Assembly: GCA_000004695.1 (NCBI GenBank)
Contig: CM000151.3
Location: 3,104,001-3,168,000, forward strand
DNA from: Dictyostelium discoideum
Taxonomy: Eukaryota
DNA: 64,000 nt
Direction of reading: 5' to 3'
Shown here: piece by piece, positions 11,383 to 60,974 of the stretch
Numbering within the stretch: the first letter of the stretch is position 1
Layout of the letters: every line of letters begins with the position of its first letter
Notes under the pieces: generated by a model
What the model was told of the DNA's origin: nothing
The model's input: the letters and a program-made list of their open reading frames with translations, nothing else
Database searches by the model: none
Position numbers and translations under genes: made by a program

Positions 11383-13570
11383 GCAACAACAACAACACAA
11401 CCACCAATTTATTGTGTATCAATTCAAAGAAATATTTTCTATTATATCATTGGTCACATACTATCATGTTATCAATATTCAAAGCCACAATATATAATTG
11501 ATTTCCCTGTATCATGTGAAGTTCAAGATAAAAAACATTCTTTTACCATTTTATTGGGTGGTACATCTGGTTGTGGTAAATCAACACTCACTGCTTTATT
11601 AGCCTCAAGAATCGGTTTCACTGCTGTTATCTCTACTGATAACATTAGACAATTACTAAGAAAATTCATTAGTAGACAAGAATCACCTATACTTTGGGCT
11701 TCAACTTATCATGCTGGTGAAATCATTTCAAATCCATCATTATCACATAAAGAAAAAGTAATTAATTCTTTTTTTTTTTTTTTTTTTAAATGTTATATAT
11801 ATATAATTAATAACTTTTTATTTTTAATTTTATTTTATAGATTTTACAAGGTTATGAAGCACAAAATGAAATGATTTTTAATAAATTAGATATTTTAATT
11901 GGACATTATGAAAAGAGAAAAGAATCATTAATTGTTGAAGGTGTTCATTTAGATACTAAACTCATTCTAAGATTAGTAAAGAAACATCCATCTTGTATTC
12001 CATTTTTAATGTACATTAGTAATGAAGCAAAACATAAAGAAAGATTTGCAATTCGTTCAAAATATATGACTCTCGATCCTCATCAAAATAAATATACAAA
12101 ATACTTTAAAAATATTCGTATCATTAATGATCATTTATGTCATGGCGCTGATGAACATATGGTAAGTTTTTTAAATATAAATATATAAGGATAGAAATAT
12201 TGATTGATAGAAAGATTGATTAATAAATATTCCAATTTATATTTAAAATATTGATACATATATTTTTAGATTCCACAAATTGATAATACAAGTATTGATA
12301 GATCTTTAGCTACAATTCATGGCACCATCTTTGCTTGTTTAAAGAGAAAAGTACAATGTGGTGAATCTTATTATAATCATGAAACTGATAAGTATGTATT
12401 ATTGATCCTTTTTTAATAATAATAATAATTTCTAACATTAAAAAAAAAAAAAAAAAAAAAAAACTATTTAGAATGAATATGTTATATAATCAATATGAAC
12501 AAATTCAACATCAATTTTGGTCATCAAAGGGTATGTTGAGATTAATTCAAAAAAAAAAAACTGTTAGTCCTCATGGAAATAATAACGTCACCGGCGATGT
12601 AGATAATAATAATAGCAATAGTAACAACAATAATGTCAATAATAATAATGGTGATAATAATGGTGATAGTAATGTTGATAATAATAGTAATGATAATGAC
12701 AATAATAATAATAATAGTAATAATATTAGTAATATTAATAATGATAATGATAATAATAATAATGATAATGATAATAGTAATGTTGATAATAATAACGATA
12801 ATAGTGATAATAGTGTTAATAGTAATAATAGTATTAATAGTAATAATGGTAATGAGGGTAGTAATAATTGTAATGTTGTAAATGGTAATAATAGTAATAG
12901 CGATATATTAATTAAGGTTGAATACAATAAAAATAATAATAGTAGTAGTAACGATAATGAATACAAGAATAGCAATGACAATCATTGCAATATAAAAAAT
13001 GAAACCGAAAATAGTGATATTAATGGTTGTATCAATAACAACATCATCAGCTACAATAACAATATAAAGAATAACACTGATAATACCACTGGTAATCATA
13101 ATTATACCACTATGAATGGTAACAATGAAAATGATTGTAAAAATAATAATAATAATAATAATATTAAAACCATACCAAACGAGGGACAACAACAACCACA
13201 ACAACAACCACAACAGCAACCACCACAACAATCACAACAACAACCACAACTACAACAAAAAAAGCAACAAATACAAGAAGAACAACAAAATTTAAATAAT
13301 AATAATAAATCAATTGAAGATGATGAAGAAGCATTCAATAGCGATGATGAACATGATCATGAAGATGATTCAATTAGAGGTAATGAATCTGGTTCAGTTG
13401 GTGACCATGGTAATAGTGTTAAGAAATCCTCATTAAATGATAAAAATCATAATAATGGTAATAATCAAAGTAATGAAGATAATGACGATGATTCAGATAT
13501 TTCAGATTCAGATTCAGATGGTGGTGAAAGAATTGATTATTATTTAGATTGTGGTTCACTTGGTAGTTAA
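10676..13570 (+). CDS. P-loop NTPase of the 2-phosphoglycerate kinase-like (plant LPA1-like) family with an Asn/Asp/Ser-rich C-terminal extension of about 330 aa. Exons 10676..10975, 11080..11757, 11841..12161, 12270..12391, 12472..13570.
   Basis: Walker A FTILLGGTSGCGKSTLTALLASRIGFTAVISTDNIRQLLRK, followed by ESLIVEGVHLD (Walker B-like). All exons join in frame (phases 0,0,0,2). The last exon is mostly (AAT/GAT/AGT)n codons, ending in an acidic DSDISDSDSD tail. Confidence 0.6.
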
Positions 13571-15856: not shown

Positions 15857-33068
<17,212 letters not shown>

Positions 33069-38225: not shown

Positions 38226-39611
38226 AATTATAAAAATAGAAAAAAGATATGGTTGGGTTATTTAAAATAATAAAAAAAAAAAAAAAAAAAAAAAACCTGA
38301 AATATTCGTATTAATGGAAAACTTTGAAGGTGGAACAAAGGTTATTTTAAACAAGTATTTTCATTAAAGATTATAGGAAAAAAATAAATTAAATAGTTTT
38401 ATTTTTTTATTTGATTTATTATCTCATCAATGCTTGTTGCTGTAGTTGATAAAATATTGATGAAATAAATTAATGAAATTCTATGTCACCCCCTAAAAAA
38501 AATAAAAAAAAACAACAAAAAAAACCTTTGTATGTCCAATAAATCCAATTTATTTTTTATAAATAATTAATTAATTATTTAAGAAGTATAAAAATTTTAA
38601 GGAGATTTTTTATTTTTATTTTTTATTTTTATTTTTTATTTTATTTTATTTATTAAAAGGAAAAAAAACATTAATAATTATAAAACCAAGGAAAAATATT
38701 GTTTTAATTAAAACAAAGATTTTAAAGTTTTAAATTATTTACATTTTTGATTTTTGAAAAAAAAAAAAAAAAAAACAAGGAACTTTTATCATTATATATA
38801 ATCATTATATATAATTATTTTTATTATTATTATTATTTTAACTATTTTATGTTAATGATTAGAGTGATTTATAAATTATTTTTACTTGTTTAACTGCTAT
38901 GGAAATTGTATGACTGTTGATGATAATAGTTTTTAAAAAAATTATAATTTTATTATTATAAATAATATTTATAAAAATAAAAATAAAAATAAAGTTACAC
39001 TAAACAACAACAAAGGAGTAAAGAGCTACAAACTAAAAAAACTATACCATTATCACTTAAAATATCTGCCCAAAAGCAAGTATTAAAGTAAACCTTCTAG
39101 AACAATAGAAAATATAATAAAAGATTCACCCTATTGAAACCTTAAATGATTAACAAAAATTAGAATATAAACAAAAAGGTCATACCAAGGGAAACATCAT
39201 TTTGTTTATCAAAATACATAATTAATTATTTTAATACAAAATTATTATTATTATTATTTACAAATAAAATTACCTAGTTAATATTTTTAAAAATTTAAAA
39301 AAAATAAAAAATTTTATAAAGTAAAAAAGTAAAAATAAAAAGTAAAATTAAAAATTAAAAAGGGGGTAACATAATAAATAAACTACAAAAAATAAAAATT
39401 TTAAAATCATTAATAATCATTATTATTATTATAAATAATGAGGCAAACAGTTAAATTTAAAAAAAAAGAAAAAATGAATAAAAAAAAAAAAAAAATACAA
39501 ATGGACCGATAACTTTTTTTTACTTTTATTTTTTTAAAAATAAAAAAGTCATCTCCATACTAATAATATTTATTTGGTTATTTTTTTGGTTTTTAGGAAA
39601 AAAAAAAAAAA

Positions 39612-39711
39612 NNNNNNNNNNNNNNNNNNNNNNNNNNNNNNNNNNNNNNNNNNNNNNNNNNNNNNNNNNNNNNNNNNNNNNNNNNNNNNNNNNNNNNNNN
39701 NNNNNNNNNNN
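39612..39711. other. Assembly gap (100 N).
   Basis: A run of n characters. Confidence 1.
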
Positions 39712-40102
39712 TAAAATTAAAATAATAAAATATTAAAAATAAAAAAATTAGTGTGAATGAAACATTGACAATTTGGAAAATGAATAAATAAAAAAAAATA
39801 AAAAAAAAAAAAATAAAAAACAAAAAAAAAAATAATAAAAACAAATAGTAATAATAATAATAATATTGATACTAAAAAAATAAAATAAAATAAAATAAAA
39901 TAATCTAATAGACATATTTTTTATTATAAAAAAAAAATAATAAATAATCAAAAAGTAAGTATATTAAAATTTTTATATATACCCATACTTGAATCTTTTA
40001 GATAATGATTTATTTCATATGTGATGATGATTAAAGTAGAATTTAGGGTAGCTTTTTTTCTTTAAATTCATTTTAATGAAAAAACAAATATATTTTTAAT
40101 TT

Positions 40103-40139
<37 letters not shown>

Positions 40140-40361
40140 CTTTAATTTTATCACTATAAAAACAAAGTTTTTTTTTTTATTTTTTTATTTAATAATTATA
40201 AATTTAAAATTAACAGTAAAATTAAAAAAATAATAGTATACTATAAAAAATGGTATGGATAATGTGGTATTATTTATAATAACGTTTTAAAATATTAATT
40301 ATTTTCATTTATTTTTTTTTTTTTTTATTTTCTCAACAAAATTTTATAATTGTAGAACAAA

Positions 40362-40553
40362 ATGAATATCTTGATTGTAATTATTATTATTATAATAACA
40401 ATAAGTTTTTCCCTTGGTAATGTGAATGAATGTTATGCAAATTGCTTCAAAAAGAATACTAGATACTGTGGAAAGGATCAATTTCTTTGTGATGTAGTTG
40501 TTGGTAAATGCCAAGAAAGTTGTAATATTGAATTTGGTATTGAACAAAAATAA
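40362..40553 (+). CDS. 63-aa secreted Cys6 peptide (paralog 1), intronless.
   Basis: Signal peptide MNILIVIIIIIITISFSLG, then a mature peptide with the spacing C-x3-C-x7-C-x6-C-x6-C-x3-C (NECYANCFKKNTRYCGKDQFLCDVVVGKCQESCNIEFGIEQK). Confidence 0.6.
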   Translation: MNILIVIIIIIITISFSLGNVNECYANCFKKNTRYCGKDQFLCDVVVGKCQESCNIEFGIEQK

Positions 40554-40729
40554 ATAAATTTTAAAAATAATAATAATATCAATTATAATAATTATAATAA
40601 TAAATGAAAATTTTAAAACATATCAATGAATTAAAAATAAATATAAATTTAAAAAAATAATAATTAAATTTTTTATGTAATAATATGTTTTTTTTTTTTT
40701 TTAATCAAATTTAAAAATAAATAAAAAAG

Positions 40730-40765
<36 letters not shown>

Positions 40766-41107
40766 AAAAAGAAATAATTATTTTTTTTTTTTTTTTGTTG
40801 GGGGTAATTATGTATATAATTTCAAAAAATGGTAATAATTAATAAGATCTCCTTTTTTGTGGGTGTTTTTGGTATAAATATTAATGAAATTATATGAAAA
40901 AAACTTTATTAATACCACCCATTAATTACTATTATTTTTTTTTTTTTTTTTGTTTTTTAATATTTTTTTTTTTTTTTTTTTATTTTAAAATAAAAACAAA
41001 AATTTAAAAAAAGATTTTTAAATTTGACAAGGGTTTTAACTTTTTTTTTTTTTTTTTTTTTTTTAATTTATAAAATCTAATTATTGAAACAAAATAAAAA
41101 TAGAATA

Positions 41108-41400
41108 ATGGTAAAATAAAATTTTTTTTAACAATTTTTTTATTTATTTATACATATTTTTTATTAACAATAAAATATTTTTTTTTTAAAAAACAAATTT
41201 TAATCTTTTAGAAATTAACTCTCTTTTTTTGTATTTTTTTAGTGGTTTATTTAATGATAATATCATCAAATGGAATAAATGGTGATTGTTATAGTGATTG
41301 TGTTGATGATAATAGAGAATTTTGTAAAACTGAATGGTCAAAATGCGTTGTACTAATGCAAAAATGTAGAGATAATTGTGATGTACAATTAGAAAATTAG
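41108..41400 (+). CDS. 63-aa secreted Cys6 peptide (paralog 2). Exon 1 is the ATG alone (41108..41110). Exon 2 is 41212..41400.
   Basis: ATG|GTAAAAT...CTTTTAG|AAATTAACT gives MKLTLFFCIFLVVYLMIISSNGINGDCYSDCVDDNREFCKTEWSKCVVLMQKCRDNCDVQLEN. Its cysteine spacing is identical to that of paralog 1. Confidence 0.55.
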
Positions 41401-41927
41401 TAATAATAAAAAAAAAAAATAAAAAATAAAAATTTAAAATAAAAAATAAAAAAAAATAATAATGAAACATAAAATATTTATAACAAACATAATAAATATT
41501 TAAAAATTTTTAAAAAAAAAAATTTATTGTTATTTTACATTAAATAAAAATAAATTAATAAATTTTTTAAAAATATTAAAGATTTTAAAAATTATTATTA
41601 TTTAATCTTTTTTTTTTATAATATCTCCAAACAATTTACTTGTTTTTTTTTTTTTAAATTAAATGATACCTCAATTATTTACTCATTTGTTTGATATATT
41701 AAAATTGAAAAGAGTGTTAATTAAAAAAAAAATTTCCATTTTTATATAAAATGGAAAAGTATTAATGTTTAATATATTCTTTTCATCTTTTAATTTTAAA
41801 ACAAATAGAAACTATTTTTTTTTTTTTTTTTTTTTTTTTCCTAAAAAGAATAAATAAATAAATTATAACAAGCTTAATAATAATAATAAAATTTAAAAAA
41901 AGAGTGAAAATTAAAATAATTATTTAT

Positions 41928-43088
41928 TTATTTATTAAAAAAAGAAGGTGTAACTATATTAATATTATTACAATTTGAACAAGATAATTGAATTTCATGA
42001 TTTGAAGTTAATGTATTTAAAATTGGTATCATTGGTTTTGAATAATATAAACCTGTACATTTCTTTTGAGAACAATAAAACTTTGAAATCCAATTATCCA
42101 TTGAATCAATTGAATTTGAATCACCATTACATCTTGGACAAATACAATCAAAGTAATAACCATACTTTAATTCATCTTTTCTATCTTGTATTGGTTGATC
42201 TAATTCAATATAAGATATTGTCAATTGGTCACCCTTTTTAATTGGATATAATGATTTAAATGTCATATTACTACCATCTCTAACATCTGTACAATTTGGT
42301 ATACAAGAATGATTAAAATAACTACTACTTGGTGATACTGCAACACCAATACACTTATCATTCTTTGTCCAAATTCCAAATTGATTACATCTAGTTTTAT
42401 GTATAATTGATCTACTTTTTTCATTAATTTTCCTAATCATTTCAATTTTATCATCATTATTAATTATTGATTTTGTTGTTGTTGACCCTAATAATACTAA
42501 ATTAAACAATTCACTTATAAATTCAACGATTGAATCAATTCTTTCTTTTGCTGCTGGATTTGATTCTTCTGTAACTTGATTTTCTACTAAATCAAAAACA
42601 TCATCTAATGTATTTGTTAATTGTTCATTATCATTATTATTATTATTGTTGTTATTTAATTGTTGTTCAATAAATTTATTATTTAATAAAATATCTTGAT
42701 AATATCTTGATAACAAACCAACGATCATTCTAATTTCTGTAAATGTTTCAATATCAAAATTTGGATAAACTTTTAATTTTGGTGATTTTAATTTTTTATA
42801 AAATTTACATTCATAATGTTGATGTTTATTAATATTTTCATTTTTACATTGTTCATTACAATACCAAATTTCATTACATTGATTACATTTTAATGATAAT
42901 TTAATAACTGATGGTAATTGTTTAATACAATTAAAACATGATGTTGTTTTTAAAGTTTCTGATGTAACTGCAAAATATGATTTACATTTTAATAAATCTT
43001 CTCCAATTTGAATATCACGAGTTGCTATTAAATAACGACCTTCATTCTCTGAACTTTTTAATTCTAATCCATTAAAAGATTTAAACAT
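41928..43088 (-). CDS. SET and MYND domain (SMYD-type) lysine methyltransferase, paralog 1, intronless, 386 aa.
   Basis: MYND zinc finger CFNCIKQL...CNQCNEIWYCNEQCKNENINKHQHYEC. SET core FGIWTKNDKCIGVAVSPSSSYFNHSCIPNC...ELKYGYYFDCICPRC (post-SET Cys cluster). Confidence 0.8.
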   Translation of the reverse strand: MFKSFNGLELKSSENEGRYLIATRDIQIGEDLLKCKSYFAVTSETLKTTSCFNCIKQLPSVIKLSLKCNQCNEIWYCNEQCKNENINKHQHYECKFYKKLKSPKLKVYPNFDIETFTEIRMIVGLLSRYYQDILLNNKFIEQQLNNNNNNNNDNEQLTNTLDDVFDLVENQVTEESNPAAKERIDSIVEFISELFNLVLLGSTTTKSIINNDDKIEMIRKINEKSRSIIHKTRCNQFGIWTKNDKCIGVAVSPSSSYFNHSCIPNCTDVRDGSNMTFKSLYPIKKGDQLTISYIELDQPIQDRKDELKYGYYFDCICPRCNGDSNSIDSMDNWISKFYCSQKKCTGLYYSKPMIPILNTLTSNHEIQLSCSNCNNINIVTPSFFNK

Positions 43089-58928: not shown

Positions 58929-60974
58929 TTTTTATTATTAAGTTGTTCAATTTTTGATCAATTACCAAAATTAAATAGTGATTTTGAACCAGATTATGGT
59001 GATATTTCAGTTGGAATGATAAAAAATGTATTGGAAGGTGATAGTCCAACATTAGCATCAAATGATCCAAATTTTAAACCATTTGTAAATGGTAAATTAA
59101 AAAATTTAAATTTATTTCCAACATGGTTTAATAAAAACCATACACAAAATGTAATGTTATTAAAGAAATTAAATTTAACATTGGATAAATCATCAAATAT
59201 TTATTCATTTGTAAAGGATGATTTCTTTCCAATTGATTATCAAGGTTGGGATGTTGATGAGAGTAATAGAATCTATTATGGTGGTAGAATTTTTACAGCC
59301 TATCATAACTTTCATTATTGTTTAAAGATTAATTCAGTATTCTTTTATCAAGGTACTGAAACTTTTAAATTTGAAGGTGATGATGATGTTTGGGTATTTA
59401 TTGATAAGAAGTTGGTCTTGGATTTAGGTGGTTTACATCCTGCTAGAAGAGGTACTGTTGATTTGACAAAGTTGGGTTTACAAGTTAACAAAACCTATTC
59501 CTTTGATTTCTTTTATTGTGAAAGACATACACCCTATAGTAAAATGAAAATTCAAACTGATATTCAAGCATTTTGTGCATGGTCTGATTATTGTGGTGTT
59601 TGTCAAGGTGATGGTTCAACATGTTGTAATAAAGACCTTGATTGTGATGACGATGATCCATGCACCATTGATAGTTGTCCATTACCAAATTTACCAATTC
59701 CAGGTGGTGATAAAATTTCAAAATATTGTAGACATACCAATATCACTTGTACACAACCATCAAATAATAAATGTGTAATCACTGGTTGTTCAAAAGATAC
59801 CAATGGTAAATGTGAAGTAATTGGTAATTTAGAATGTGCCGATAAATCTAAATATTGTATGACGCTAACTGGTTGTGATCCAAAACTTGGTTGTCAATAT
59901 AAATCAAATTGTATTGGTCCATGTTTAACTGGTGAATGTAATAATGGTAAATGTACCAGCATGGATGCTGATTATTGTTCCAATGAATTGGGTGAAGATC
60001 CATGTAAAATTTATAGTTGTAATGCAAAGAATGGTGGTTGTATGGCAACTCCAAAATGTACTTCCCCTTCCTCCTCCAATCCATGTGTTATTCCAACTTG
60101 CTCCGCTGATAAAGGTGTTTGTGGTACATACACTCAAAATAGTACAGAATGTAATTGTAATTGTAAATTAAACCCATGTCAAAAGAATAACTGTGATCAA
60201 AGTGTAAATCCACCAGTTTGCTCCCCACTACCAATTGATACCATTGATGATGGTAATCCATGTACAATCGATATTTGTGATAAAATAACTGGTAGTGTTA
60301 AACATACTCCAATGGAATGTTCTGGTTGTACCAAATGTAATAATGGAAAATGTATTCCAATTGAATCCAATTGTGATGATGGTAATTTATGTACCATTGA
60401 TCAATGTATGAACAATGGTAGTTGTATTCACACACCTCTATCATGTAATATCACCAATCCATGTATGGATTATACTTGTAATGCTGATATTGGCTGTGTT
60501 GGTGTACCAAAAATTTGTCCAAACAAAGGTAATTGTCTAATTGGTTATTGTGATGCTGGTGAATGTAAATTAAAAGATCGTATTTGTGACTCACCTTCAT
60601 TTTGTCAAATTTCTCAATGTTCCGATGTGACTGGTTGTATTGTTTTCGATAAAGTTTGTATACCTTCAAATCCAAAATGTGAAACTGGTGTTTGTATAAA
60701 TGCTACTTCAACTGAACCAGGAAGATGTGAATCGGTTGATTTTGATCCAAAACCTTTTGTTTGTAAACCCGCTGCAATCATATCAACCTCTGTTATTGTT
60801 GGTGTTTCAGTCGCTGCTGCTGTAGTTGCCATTGCTATTGTAGTTGCTTCTAAAAAAGGTTATGATGCATGGGCTGCTTCAAATAATAATTCTCTTGCAT
60901 CTTTAACTTCAAATCCTTTATATGAAAATCCAACTGGAAATGGTGATAATCCAATGTATCAACCAAATTCTTAA
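58717..60974 (+). CDS. PA14-domain type-I membrane protein of the Dictyostelium psi (psiA-like) family. Exons 58717..58801 and 58927..60974.
   Basis: Exon 1 is the signal peptide (MKIILTLLIILFSLNKNLNFVSSEVTKS, GTATGT donor, phase 1). Exon 2 carries the PA14 domain (FPIDYQGWDVDESNRIYYGGRIFTAYHNFHYCLKINSVFFYQGTETFKFEGDDDVWVFIDKKLVLDLGG), then more than 20 C.....C..D.C-type Cys repeats, a TM helix (IISTSVIVGVSVAAAVVAIAIVVA) and a tail with NPLYENP and NPMYQPN. Confidence 0.7.

Follow-up and report, generated by a model that had tools for sequence, protein, structure and literature searches.

A tandem pair of genes for putative secreted six-cysteine peptides at a mis-annotated locus of Dictyostelium discoideum

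The present analysis deals with two small adjacent genes, hereafter copy 1 and copy 2, in a 64,000-nucleotide stretch of chromosome 2 of Dictyostelium discoideum AX4 (GCA_000004695.1, contig CM000151.3, positions 3,104,001 to 3,168,000 of the forward strand), which is called the window and to whose own numbering all positions refer unless preceded by a locus label. An original prediction had described here two peptides of 63 amino acids (aa) with an identical six-cysteine scaffold, encoded on the same strand, and both open reading frames (ORFs) are indeed found where it placed them. The window, with a G+C content of 22% and long homopolymer runs, was compared with the orthologous loci of D. 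firmibasis (L001; GCA_036169595.1, CM069770.1) and of two D. cf. discoideum assemblies (L002 and L003), which together with AX4 constitute the four genomes considered below. Copies 1 and 2 are regarded as separate co-regulated genes, i.e., what is left of an ancestral tandem set of three whose third member is referred to as copy 0.

Layout of the locus and structure of the two genes

All three family members lie on one strand and span at most 2.5 kb, where the following features are recognised:

about 38850 to 39095, plus strand: decayed remnant of copy 0, aligning to the intact D. firmibasis ORF L001:4703-4999; all that can still be read is ...LFNCYGNCMTVDDNSF and a stop
40155 to 40190, plus strand: putative core promoter of copy 1, a TATAAAAA box then an oligo(dT) run; block ACTATAAAAACAAAG and T-run invariant in the four genomes
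40250 to 40252, plus strand: probable one-codon first exon (ATG) of copy 1; AAAAATGGTATG invariant in the four genomes
40253 to 40355, plus strand: probable intron of copy 1, 103 nucleotides, phase 0; GTATGG donor, conserved TAG acceptor before AAyAAAATG
40356 to 40553, plus strand: exon 2 of copy 1, including the annotated ORF; predicted signal peptide to 40418, mature peptide 40419-40550, stop codon 40551-40553
40797 to 40938, no strand assigned: conserved non-coding block between copies 1 and 2, equivalent to L001:6587-6723, L002:6410-6548 and L003:6469-6610
41013 to 41065, plus strand: putative core promoter of copy 2, a TATA-like box, reading TTTATAAATTT in the three genomes other than AX4, then an oligo(dT) run; block AGATTTATAAATTTGACAAGGGTTTTAAC conserved in the four genomes
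41108 to 41110, plus strand: one-codon first exon (ATG) of copy 2; the 20-nucleotide stretch AAAATAGAA(n)AATGGTAAAATA, ATG then GT donor, invariant in the four genomes
41111 to 41211, plus strand: intron of copy 2, 101 nucleotides, phase 0; donor GTAAAATA and AG acceptor conserved in the four genomes
41212 to 41400, plus strand: exon 2 of copy 2; predicted signal peptide 41212-41274, mature peptide 41275-41397, stop codon 41398-41400

Copy 1 corresponds to an ORF of 63 aa at 40362..40553 on the plus strand (MNILIVIIIIIITISFSLGNVNECYANCFKKNTRYCGKDQFLCDVVVGKCQESCNIEFGIEQK), identical to DDB_G0273255/DDB_G0273585 (exact match, UniProt Q557F9, Q557F9_DICDI), the double gene identifier resulting from the known chromosome 2 duplication in AX4. 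As judged from sequence conservation, the gene probably starts one exon further upstream, at the ATG 40250-40252, to give a precursor of 66 aa; the acceptor at 40355/40356 (..TAG/AAyAAAATG, the slash marking the exon boundary) is invariant in the four genomes, the intron interior carries many indels between species, and the D. firmibasis annotation P0005 (MNKMNKM...) already has this one-codon-exon structure. For copy 2, the spliced product of 63 aa (MKLTLFFCIFLVVYLMIISSNGINGDCYSDCVDDNREFCKTEWSKCVVLMQKCRDNCDVQLEN) results from the ATG at 41108-41110, an intron GTAAAAT...TTTTAG at 41111-41211 and exon 2 at 41212-41400. While the intron is of variable length and rich in indels in its interior, the AG acceptor precedes AAA in four genomes out of four, and the frame past the acceptor, whose T-rich start encodes a hydrophobic segment, is indel-free in all of them. 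Of the start sites originally proposed, that of copy 2, in an exon reduced to the ATG, lies at 41108-41110 and is conserved in the four genomes; that of copy 1 probably has to be moved upstream. Both genes would then be built alike, namely an ATG exon, a phase-0 intron of about 100 nucleotides and a single coding exon, which fits a tandem duplication. A TATA box followed by a T-run being the usual layout of Dictyostelium promoters, a promoter role is ascribed to both TATA/oligo(dT) blocks; bacterial promoter and terminator models, which are unsuited to a eukaryotic host, gave no enrichment over the window.

The original prediction also held that standard gene finders easily miss such a family; the locus is indeed mis-annotated in every genome examined. 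In AX4, copy 2 is annotated as DDB_G0273395 over 41254-41400 only, i.e., a protein of 48 aa that begins (MIISSNG...) with an internal ATG and lacks the predicted signal peptide; as the position of this internal ATG reads ATT in D. firmibasis, the 48-aa model is not ancestral. The D. firmibasis orthologue of copy 2 (ATG at about 6888, exon 2 at 7002-7190 of L001) is annotated merely as a 16-aa stub, and copy 0 is left uncalled there. The 63-aa sequence of copy 2, as modelled here, is absent from some 15 billion collected proteins. Three public annotations are thereby corrected, namely that of AX4, deprived of its predicted signal peptide in DDB_G0273395, that of D. cf. discoideum, with two fusions, and that of D. 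firmibasis, where two members were missed.

In the two D. cf. discoideum annotations, copies 1 and 2 are joined in a single product (110 and 114 aa), which amounts to one gene encoding one two-domain protein, with copy 1 spliced to copy 2 over a spacer of about 700 nucleotides (40536 to 41242). The NCBI models KAM9984574.1 and KAM9997520.1 do link ...CNIEF to VVY...GDCYSDC, and AX4 provides a G/GTATTG donor and a TTTTTTTAG/TG acceptor usable for this purpose, but in D. firmibasis the donor reads GGAGTA, instead of G/GTATT, and the second acceptor required (CTTTTTAC) is absent. Besides, such a transcript would skip the C-terminal tail of copy 1 (GIEQK or GVEQK) together with its stop codon, yet both are conserved across the genomes with mostly synonymous changes, and it would turn a hydrophobic, signal-like segment into a linker. 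Copy 2 is moreover preceded by a conserved TATA-like box and T-run of its own and has an invariant ATG/GTAAAATA. Introns near 700 nucleotides are also long for the D. discoideum genome. A single fused gene is consequently considered very improbable.

A small tandem family of narrow taxonomic range

The pattern C-x3-C-x7-C-x6-C-x6-C-x3-C is present in both copies and has exactly two matches in the six-frame translation of the window, when about 1e-6 would be expected per window from the observed codon frequencies and none was obtained in 100 windows simulated under a Markov-1 model. The precursors of copies 1 and 2 align with 29% identity (E = 4e-9, pairwise BLASTP) and share little beyond the six cysteines and a Tyr after the first of them, in agreement with the divergence originally reported. 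Looser matches to the cysteine pattern at 13186-13287 (minus strand), 32687-32746 (minus strand) and 60791-60847 (plus strand) correspond to simple-sequence repeats (poly-Cys, TGT/TGC-like runs), not to peptide genes.

Spurious ORFs are abundant in the window, and one of them, the minus-strand ORF of 94 aa at 41186..41470 already pointed out in the original prediction, overlaps copy 2; it is of low complexity. On this basis, copies 1 and 2 could themselves be taken for chance ORFs of AT-rich intergenic DNA, but this is refuted by the rarity of the pattern (about 1e-6 per window), by a ratio of nonsynonymous to synonymous substitution rates (dN/dS) far under 1 between orthologues, by the conservation of the splice signals and by the presence of both genes on differential-expression lists, so that the probability left to such a reading is negligible.

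A regular-expression (regex) scan uncovered the third paralogue, copy 0, as an intact unannotated ORF of 98 aa at L001:4703-4999 in D. firmibasis, whose N-terminus resembles a signal, whose cysteines are spaced identically and whose C-terminal tail holds many N-x-S/T sites; in tblastn it matches copies 1 and 2 weakly (E about 6e-4 to 8e-4, in a small database). In AX4 and in both D. cf. discoideum assemblies, the syntenic position carries a remnant in the same state, i.e., with the start codon lost and a deletion of about 41 bp. The three copies group as one family by similarity, cysteine spacing and tandem position, the one-codon first exon being shared by copies 1 and 2; the spacing, whose recurrence was one of the checks originally proposed, is thus found again in the sister species as well as in copy 0. 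Because copy 0 is intact in D. firmibasis and persists as a remnant at the syntenic site elsewhere, the family once comprised at least three tandem members, of which one was lost in the D. discoideum lineage. No further member was found by the cysteine regex scan in the window or the orthologous loci. The run of 100 N at 39612-39711, between the copy 0 remnant and copy 1, is an assembly gap of AX4; an extra copy inside it is unlikely, as the matching D. cf. discoideum sequence is contiguous and the loci there carry two copies only.

Among annotated proteins, the family is restricted to D. discoideum, D. cf. discoideum and D. firmibasis. An exhaustive HMMER search with the mature-domain profile against 1.84 billion representative proteins retrieved the family members alone, bar one spurious match, and word-seeded homologue searches returned nothing beyond the family itself. 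The match in question, P0006, is to a repetitive protein of 703 aa at RCRDEMDV. Neither peptide had any Pfam match at E <= 10, and the sole match in a PDB sequence search (E = 0.7) is meaningless.

Conservation at the locus extends to non-coding sequence. In the block at 40797-40938, 22 to 27 columns out of 30 (73-90%) match D. firmibasis, about level with the coding exons, against 3 out of 24 in the nearby spacer (about 40975-40990), which is practically unalignable. The block comprises a G/T-rich box at 40859-40865 (GTGGGTG in D. discoideum, GTGTGTG in D. firmibasis), which we take to be akin to the G-box (GBF) elements of post-aggregative promoters, as well as inverted repeats (GGGGGT...ACCACCC and TATAATTTCA...TGAAATTATA). 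A structured RNA was rejected (fold z = -0.8 and -0.9, zero covariation), and Rfam gave no match, whether over the whole window at the gathering threshold or over 38600-41600 at an E-value threshold. Probably, the block serves copy 2 as a cis-regulatory module. Downstream of the copy 0 remnant, at about 39125-39215 (about 5030-5140 of L001), non-coding sequence is conserved a second time (AAAAGATTCACCCTATTGAAACCTTAAATGA ... AAAAAGGTCATACCAAGGGAAACATCATTT). The four genomes have preserved this stretch better than the remnant, and a former 3' untranslated region/terminator or an independent element may be at its origin.

As for the surroundings, gene order is common to the four genomes, namely a DDB_G0273449-family gene, a sybindin gene, the peptide genes and two minus-strand genes, at least one of them with a SET match. 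The downstream neighbour at 41928-43088 (minus strand) encodes 386 aa with an asparagine run and has orthologues with a precomputed Pfam SET match in the related loci; a MYND-like cysteine-rich region in it is a candidate recognised by eye.

Predicted precursors, expression and possible function

In both paralogues and in all species, the precursor begins with M(N)K, followed by a hydrophobic core of 16-18 residues and then by S-L-G or S-N-G in aligned position. The organisation originally proposed, i.e., a signal peptide preceding a six-cysteine domain, is supported in both peptides by this hydrophobic, signal-like N-terminus and a six-cysteine domain of 41-44 aa. Cleavage of a signal peptide and secretion are suggested by the n-h-c layout with S-x-G, by the need for an oxidising compartment and by the glycosylation-type tail of copy 0. 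AlphaFold2 models both mature peptides as helix-turn-helix, with helices at 4-19 and 23-40 in copy 1 (predicted local distance difference test, pLDDT, 86) and at 3-21 and 23-42 in copy 2 (pLDDT 82). In the numbering of copy 1, cysteines 7, 11 and 19 belong to helix 1 and cysteines 26, 33 and 37 to helix 2; the sums of the paired indices (7+37 = 44, 11+33 = 44, 19+26 = 45) are consistent with a ladder of disulfides C1-C6, C2-C5 and C3-C4 in an antiparallel hairpin, where the conserved Asn15, opposite Val29/30, would occupy the place of a missing rung. A Foldseek search against the PDB returned 0 matches.

At a synonymous divergence (dS) of about 0.4-0.7 between D. discoideum and D. firmibasis, dN/dS of the mature peptide is 0.08 for copy 1 and 0.23 for copy 2; comparison with the D. 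cf. discoideum assemblies gives 0.03-0.18, and over all comparisons it ranges from 0.03 to 0.08 in copy 1 and from 0.09 to 0.23 in copy 2. The predicted signal peptides, with values of 0.2-1.3, drift much faster than the mature part. The orthologues, which are 85% identical, are thus under purifying selection. The mature peptides have isoelectric points (pI) of 6.3 (copy 1) and 4.3 (copy 2), for net charges of -0.3 and -4.3, respectively. Of the hypervariable surface initially put forward, it holds that surfaces differ between paralogues sharing the same scaffold, but each of them is strongly conserved among orthologues, which suggests paralogue-specific binding partners. With mature-peptide dN/dS of 0.03-0.23 and a neutral to acidic charge, neither the qualification of the family as rapidly evolving nor a classical cationic antimicrobial role, in favour of which there is no positive evidence, is supported.

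Both genes are transcribed and co-induced at 18 h, i.e., at the onset of culmination, since both figure on lists of genes up-regulated at that time, as a check of developmental RNA sequencing (RNA-seq) data advised in the original prediction revealed. In Additional file 7 of Rosengarten et al., 2015 (PMC4403905), DDB_G0273255 and DDB_G0273395 are present in the filter_UP sheet, in columns 28 (UP_Hr18_rapid) and 29 (UP_Hr20_gradual), and absent from the DOWN and suspension sheets. The interval 16-18 h is one of two rapid, synchronous transitions, marked by a steep increase of the prestalk genes ecmA and ecmB and soon followed by that of the spore marker spiA (PMC4403905). A main-text literature search by gene identifier found nothing on DDB_G0273255, DDB_G0273585 or DDB_G0273395, none of which occurs in the searchable supplement text of PMC6198379, PMC5282741, PMC11367525 and PMC12821622.

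The account that we favour as a whole, and hold to be somewhat better than an even bet, is that of co-regulated secreted hairpin peptides acting by specific binding. Each gene would be transcribed from its own TATA + oligo(dT) promoter, with an ATG-only first exon and a phase-0 intron of about 100 nucleotides, and transcription of both jumps from 16 to 18 h, when slugs start to culminate. Exon 2 would supply a signal peptide of about 21 residues, predicted to be cleaved after S-x-G, and a mature peptide of 41-44 aa, which would fold in the endoplasmic reticulum into an antiparallel two-helix hairpin locked by three ladder disulfides, before release to the space outside the cells of the fruiting body as it rises. 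There, the peptides would bind specific protein partners, as ligands or inhibitors, rather than attack membranes non-specifically; this mode of action is preferred because the surfaces are conserved, non-cationic and specific to each paralogue.

Several points weigh against this account, in which disulfide topology, secretion and mode of action are deduced from sequence and models. The hydrophobic core of 16-18 residues is rather long for the h-region of a signal peptide, and the N-terminus may be an uncleaved membrane anchor. The input alignments of AlphaFold2 were shallow (3-4 sequences). The splice sites of both copies are deduced from sequence conservation, and the RNA-seq support consists of membership in gene lists. 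A search of the accessible proteome supplement did not reveal the peptides. Lastly, the choice of a specific binder over a defence role turns on charge and selection pattern alone.

That the products would be defence peptides of the fruiting body, comparable to the alpha-hairpinins of seeds, shielding the dormant spores or stalk and acting by inhibition of microbial or predator proteases via a disulfide-closed loop or by antifungal or antibacterial activity, is the main rival, though unlikely on balance. Alpha-hairpinins are the best stand-alone structural matches; they build up in dormant seeds and include trypsin inhibitors with a reactive Arg in the inter-helix loop (PMC7191063), and in the Dictyostelium peptides the 6-residue loop that the predicted disulfide would close has a Lys in every paralogue, while expression begins as a dormant structure is made. 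The loss of copy 0 is also in keeping with the birth-and-death of paralogues common among defence gene families. However, this fold match is generic, no sequence homology to a known antimicrobial peptide or inhibitor was detected in the Pfam, HMMER and PDB searches, a pI of 4.3-6.3 is unlike that of most membrane-active antimicrobial peptides, and strong purifying selection with 85% identity between orthologues argues against an arms race.

A high cysteine content is typical of coat and extracellular matrix proteins in Dictyostelium, and the tail of copy 0 abounds in N-x-S/T sites; the peptides could then be small structural or matrix components of the spore coat, stalk tube or slime sheath, all the more so as their induction at 16-18 h coincides with the rise of ecmA/ecmB, just ahead of spiA (PMC4403905). 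Yet all six cysteines are predicted to pair intramolecularly, which would leave none for cross-linking, and the peptides, of only 41-44 aa, are free of repeats and, in Pfam and HMMER searches, resemble neither coat nor Ecm repeats, so that a structural role is rated as doubtful, clearly below defence. The boldest extension of the preferred account, in which the peptides would form a new class of amoebozoan extracellular signals, i.e., paralogue-specific, disulfide-locked hairpin ligands arisen de novo in the D. discoideum group and released at the slug-to-fruiting-body switch, where by acting on surface receptors they would time or coordinate terminal stalk and spore differentiation, is a long shot, and slightly less credible still. 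More soberly, these probably secreted, lineage-restricted mini-proteins join the short list of candidate extracellular factors of culmination, a stage at which several peptide signals lack a gene, and their genes are tiny, adjacent and located in a genetically tractable organism.

Comparison with known disulfide-stapled hairpins

The finding is real and modestly novel, not categorically new: it concerns an orphan family, restricted to one lineage, in which a scaffold of a known kind has its cysteines at a new spacing. The closest counterparts are the plant alpha-hairpinins, e.g., EcAMP1, nigellin-1.1, luffin P1, the trypsin inhibitors VhTI/BWI-2c and the vicilin-buried peptides, of which the Dictyostelium peptides are viewed as a structural analogue. 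Like them, the latter are of about 35-50 aa with, as predicted, two antiparallel helices, which agrees in the models with the helix-loop-helix by which the alpha-hairpinin fold is recognised; like them, and including their six-cysteine members, they have CX3C in each helix and a presumed ladder of disulfides joining outermost to outermost, and they are likewise made in a dormant dispersal structure. Alpha-hairpinins are defined by C-X3-C-X4-20-C-X3-C, without Cys in X, or, for the 6C class, by CX3CX3C-X4-20-CX3CX3C (PMC11591084), and those of plants pair C1-C4/C2-C3 (PMC11591084, PMC7191063). The Dictyostelium motif falls outside this definition because of its spacing, taxon and precursor type. 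Its outer CX3C motifs are 21 residues apart with two cysteines in between, and its spacing departs from that of the 6C class, the extra cysteine pair lying near the turn with one rung skipped, unlike the plant CX3CX3C...CX3CX3C. The host is Dictyostelium, and no sequence homology to alpha-hairpinins emerged from the Pfam, HMMER and PDB sequence searches. Each gene encodes one putative signal peptide and one module, whereas alpha-hairpinins derive from multi-module or vicilin precursors, and the peptides are acidic to neutral instead of Arg/Glu-rich or cationic.

In animals, the scorpion kappa-hefutoxins/OmTx and the cone-snail flf14/vil14 are also secreted and form a CX3C...CX3C helical hairpin, as predicted for the Dictyostelium peptides, with C1-C4/C2-C3 pairing in the toxins; they bind specific proteins and block K+ channels (PMC7191063). 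At 22-27 aa with two disulfides, these venom components are much shorter, and no homology was detected.

Intracellular hairpins are another point of comparison. Small Tim (twin-CX3C) and CHCH (twin-CX9C) proteins are helix-turn-helix with two juxtaposed disulfides between paired CXnC motifs. These proteins of the mitochondrial intermembrane space have no endoplasmic reticulum signal, are imported via Mia40, are longer and are universally conserved, in contrast to the Dictyostelium peptides with their hydrophobic, predictably cleavable N-terminus, putative third disulfide and very narrow range; in particular, neither zf-Tim10_DDP nor CHCH was among the Pfam matches at E <= 10, which were zero, and the N-terminus is signal-like.

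With regard to culmination, SDF-1 and SDF-2, the latter derived from AcbA, are small secreted peptides acting at this stage, but SDF-2 is a fragment without cysteines, which comes from a cytosolic protein and leaves the cell by an unconventional route. Identity of the hairpin peptides with either was rejected on grounds of sequence and size; there is no sequence relation, and the likeness would be one of functional analogy. The timing of acbA expression is reported in PMC4403905. To the disulfide-stapled helical hairpins of plants, scorpions and cone snails, the Dictyostelium peptides would thus add a further and apparently independent case, which is amoebozoan and differs from the others in its cysteine spacing.

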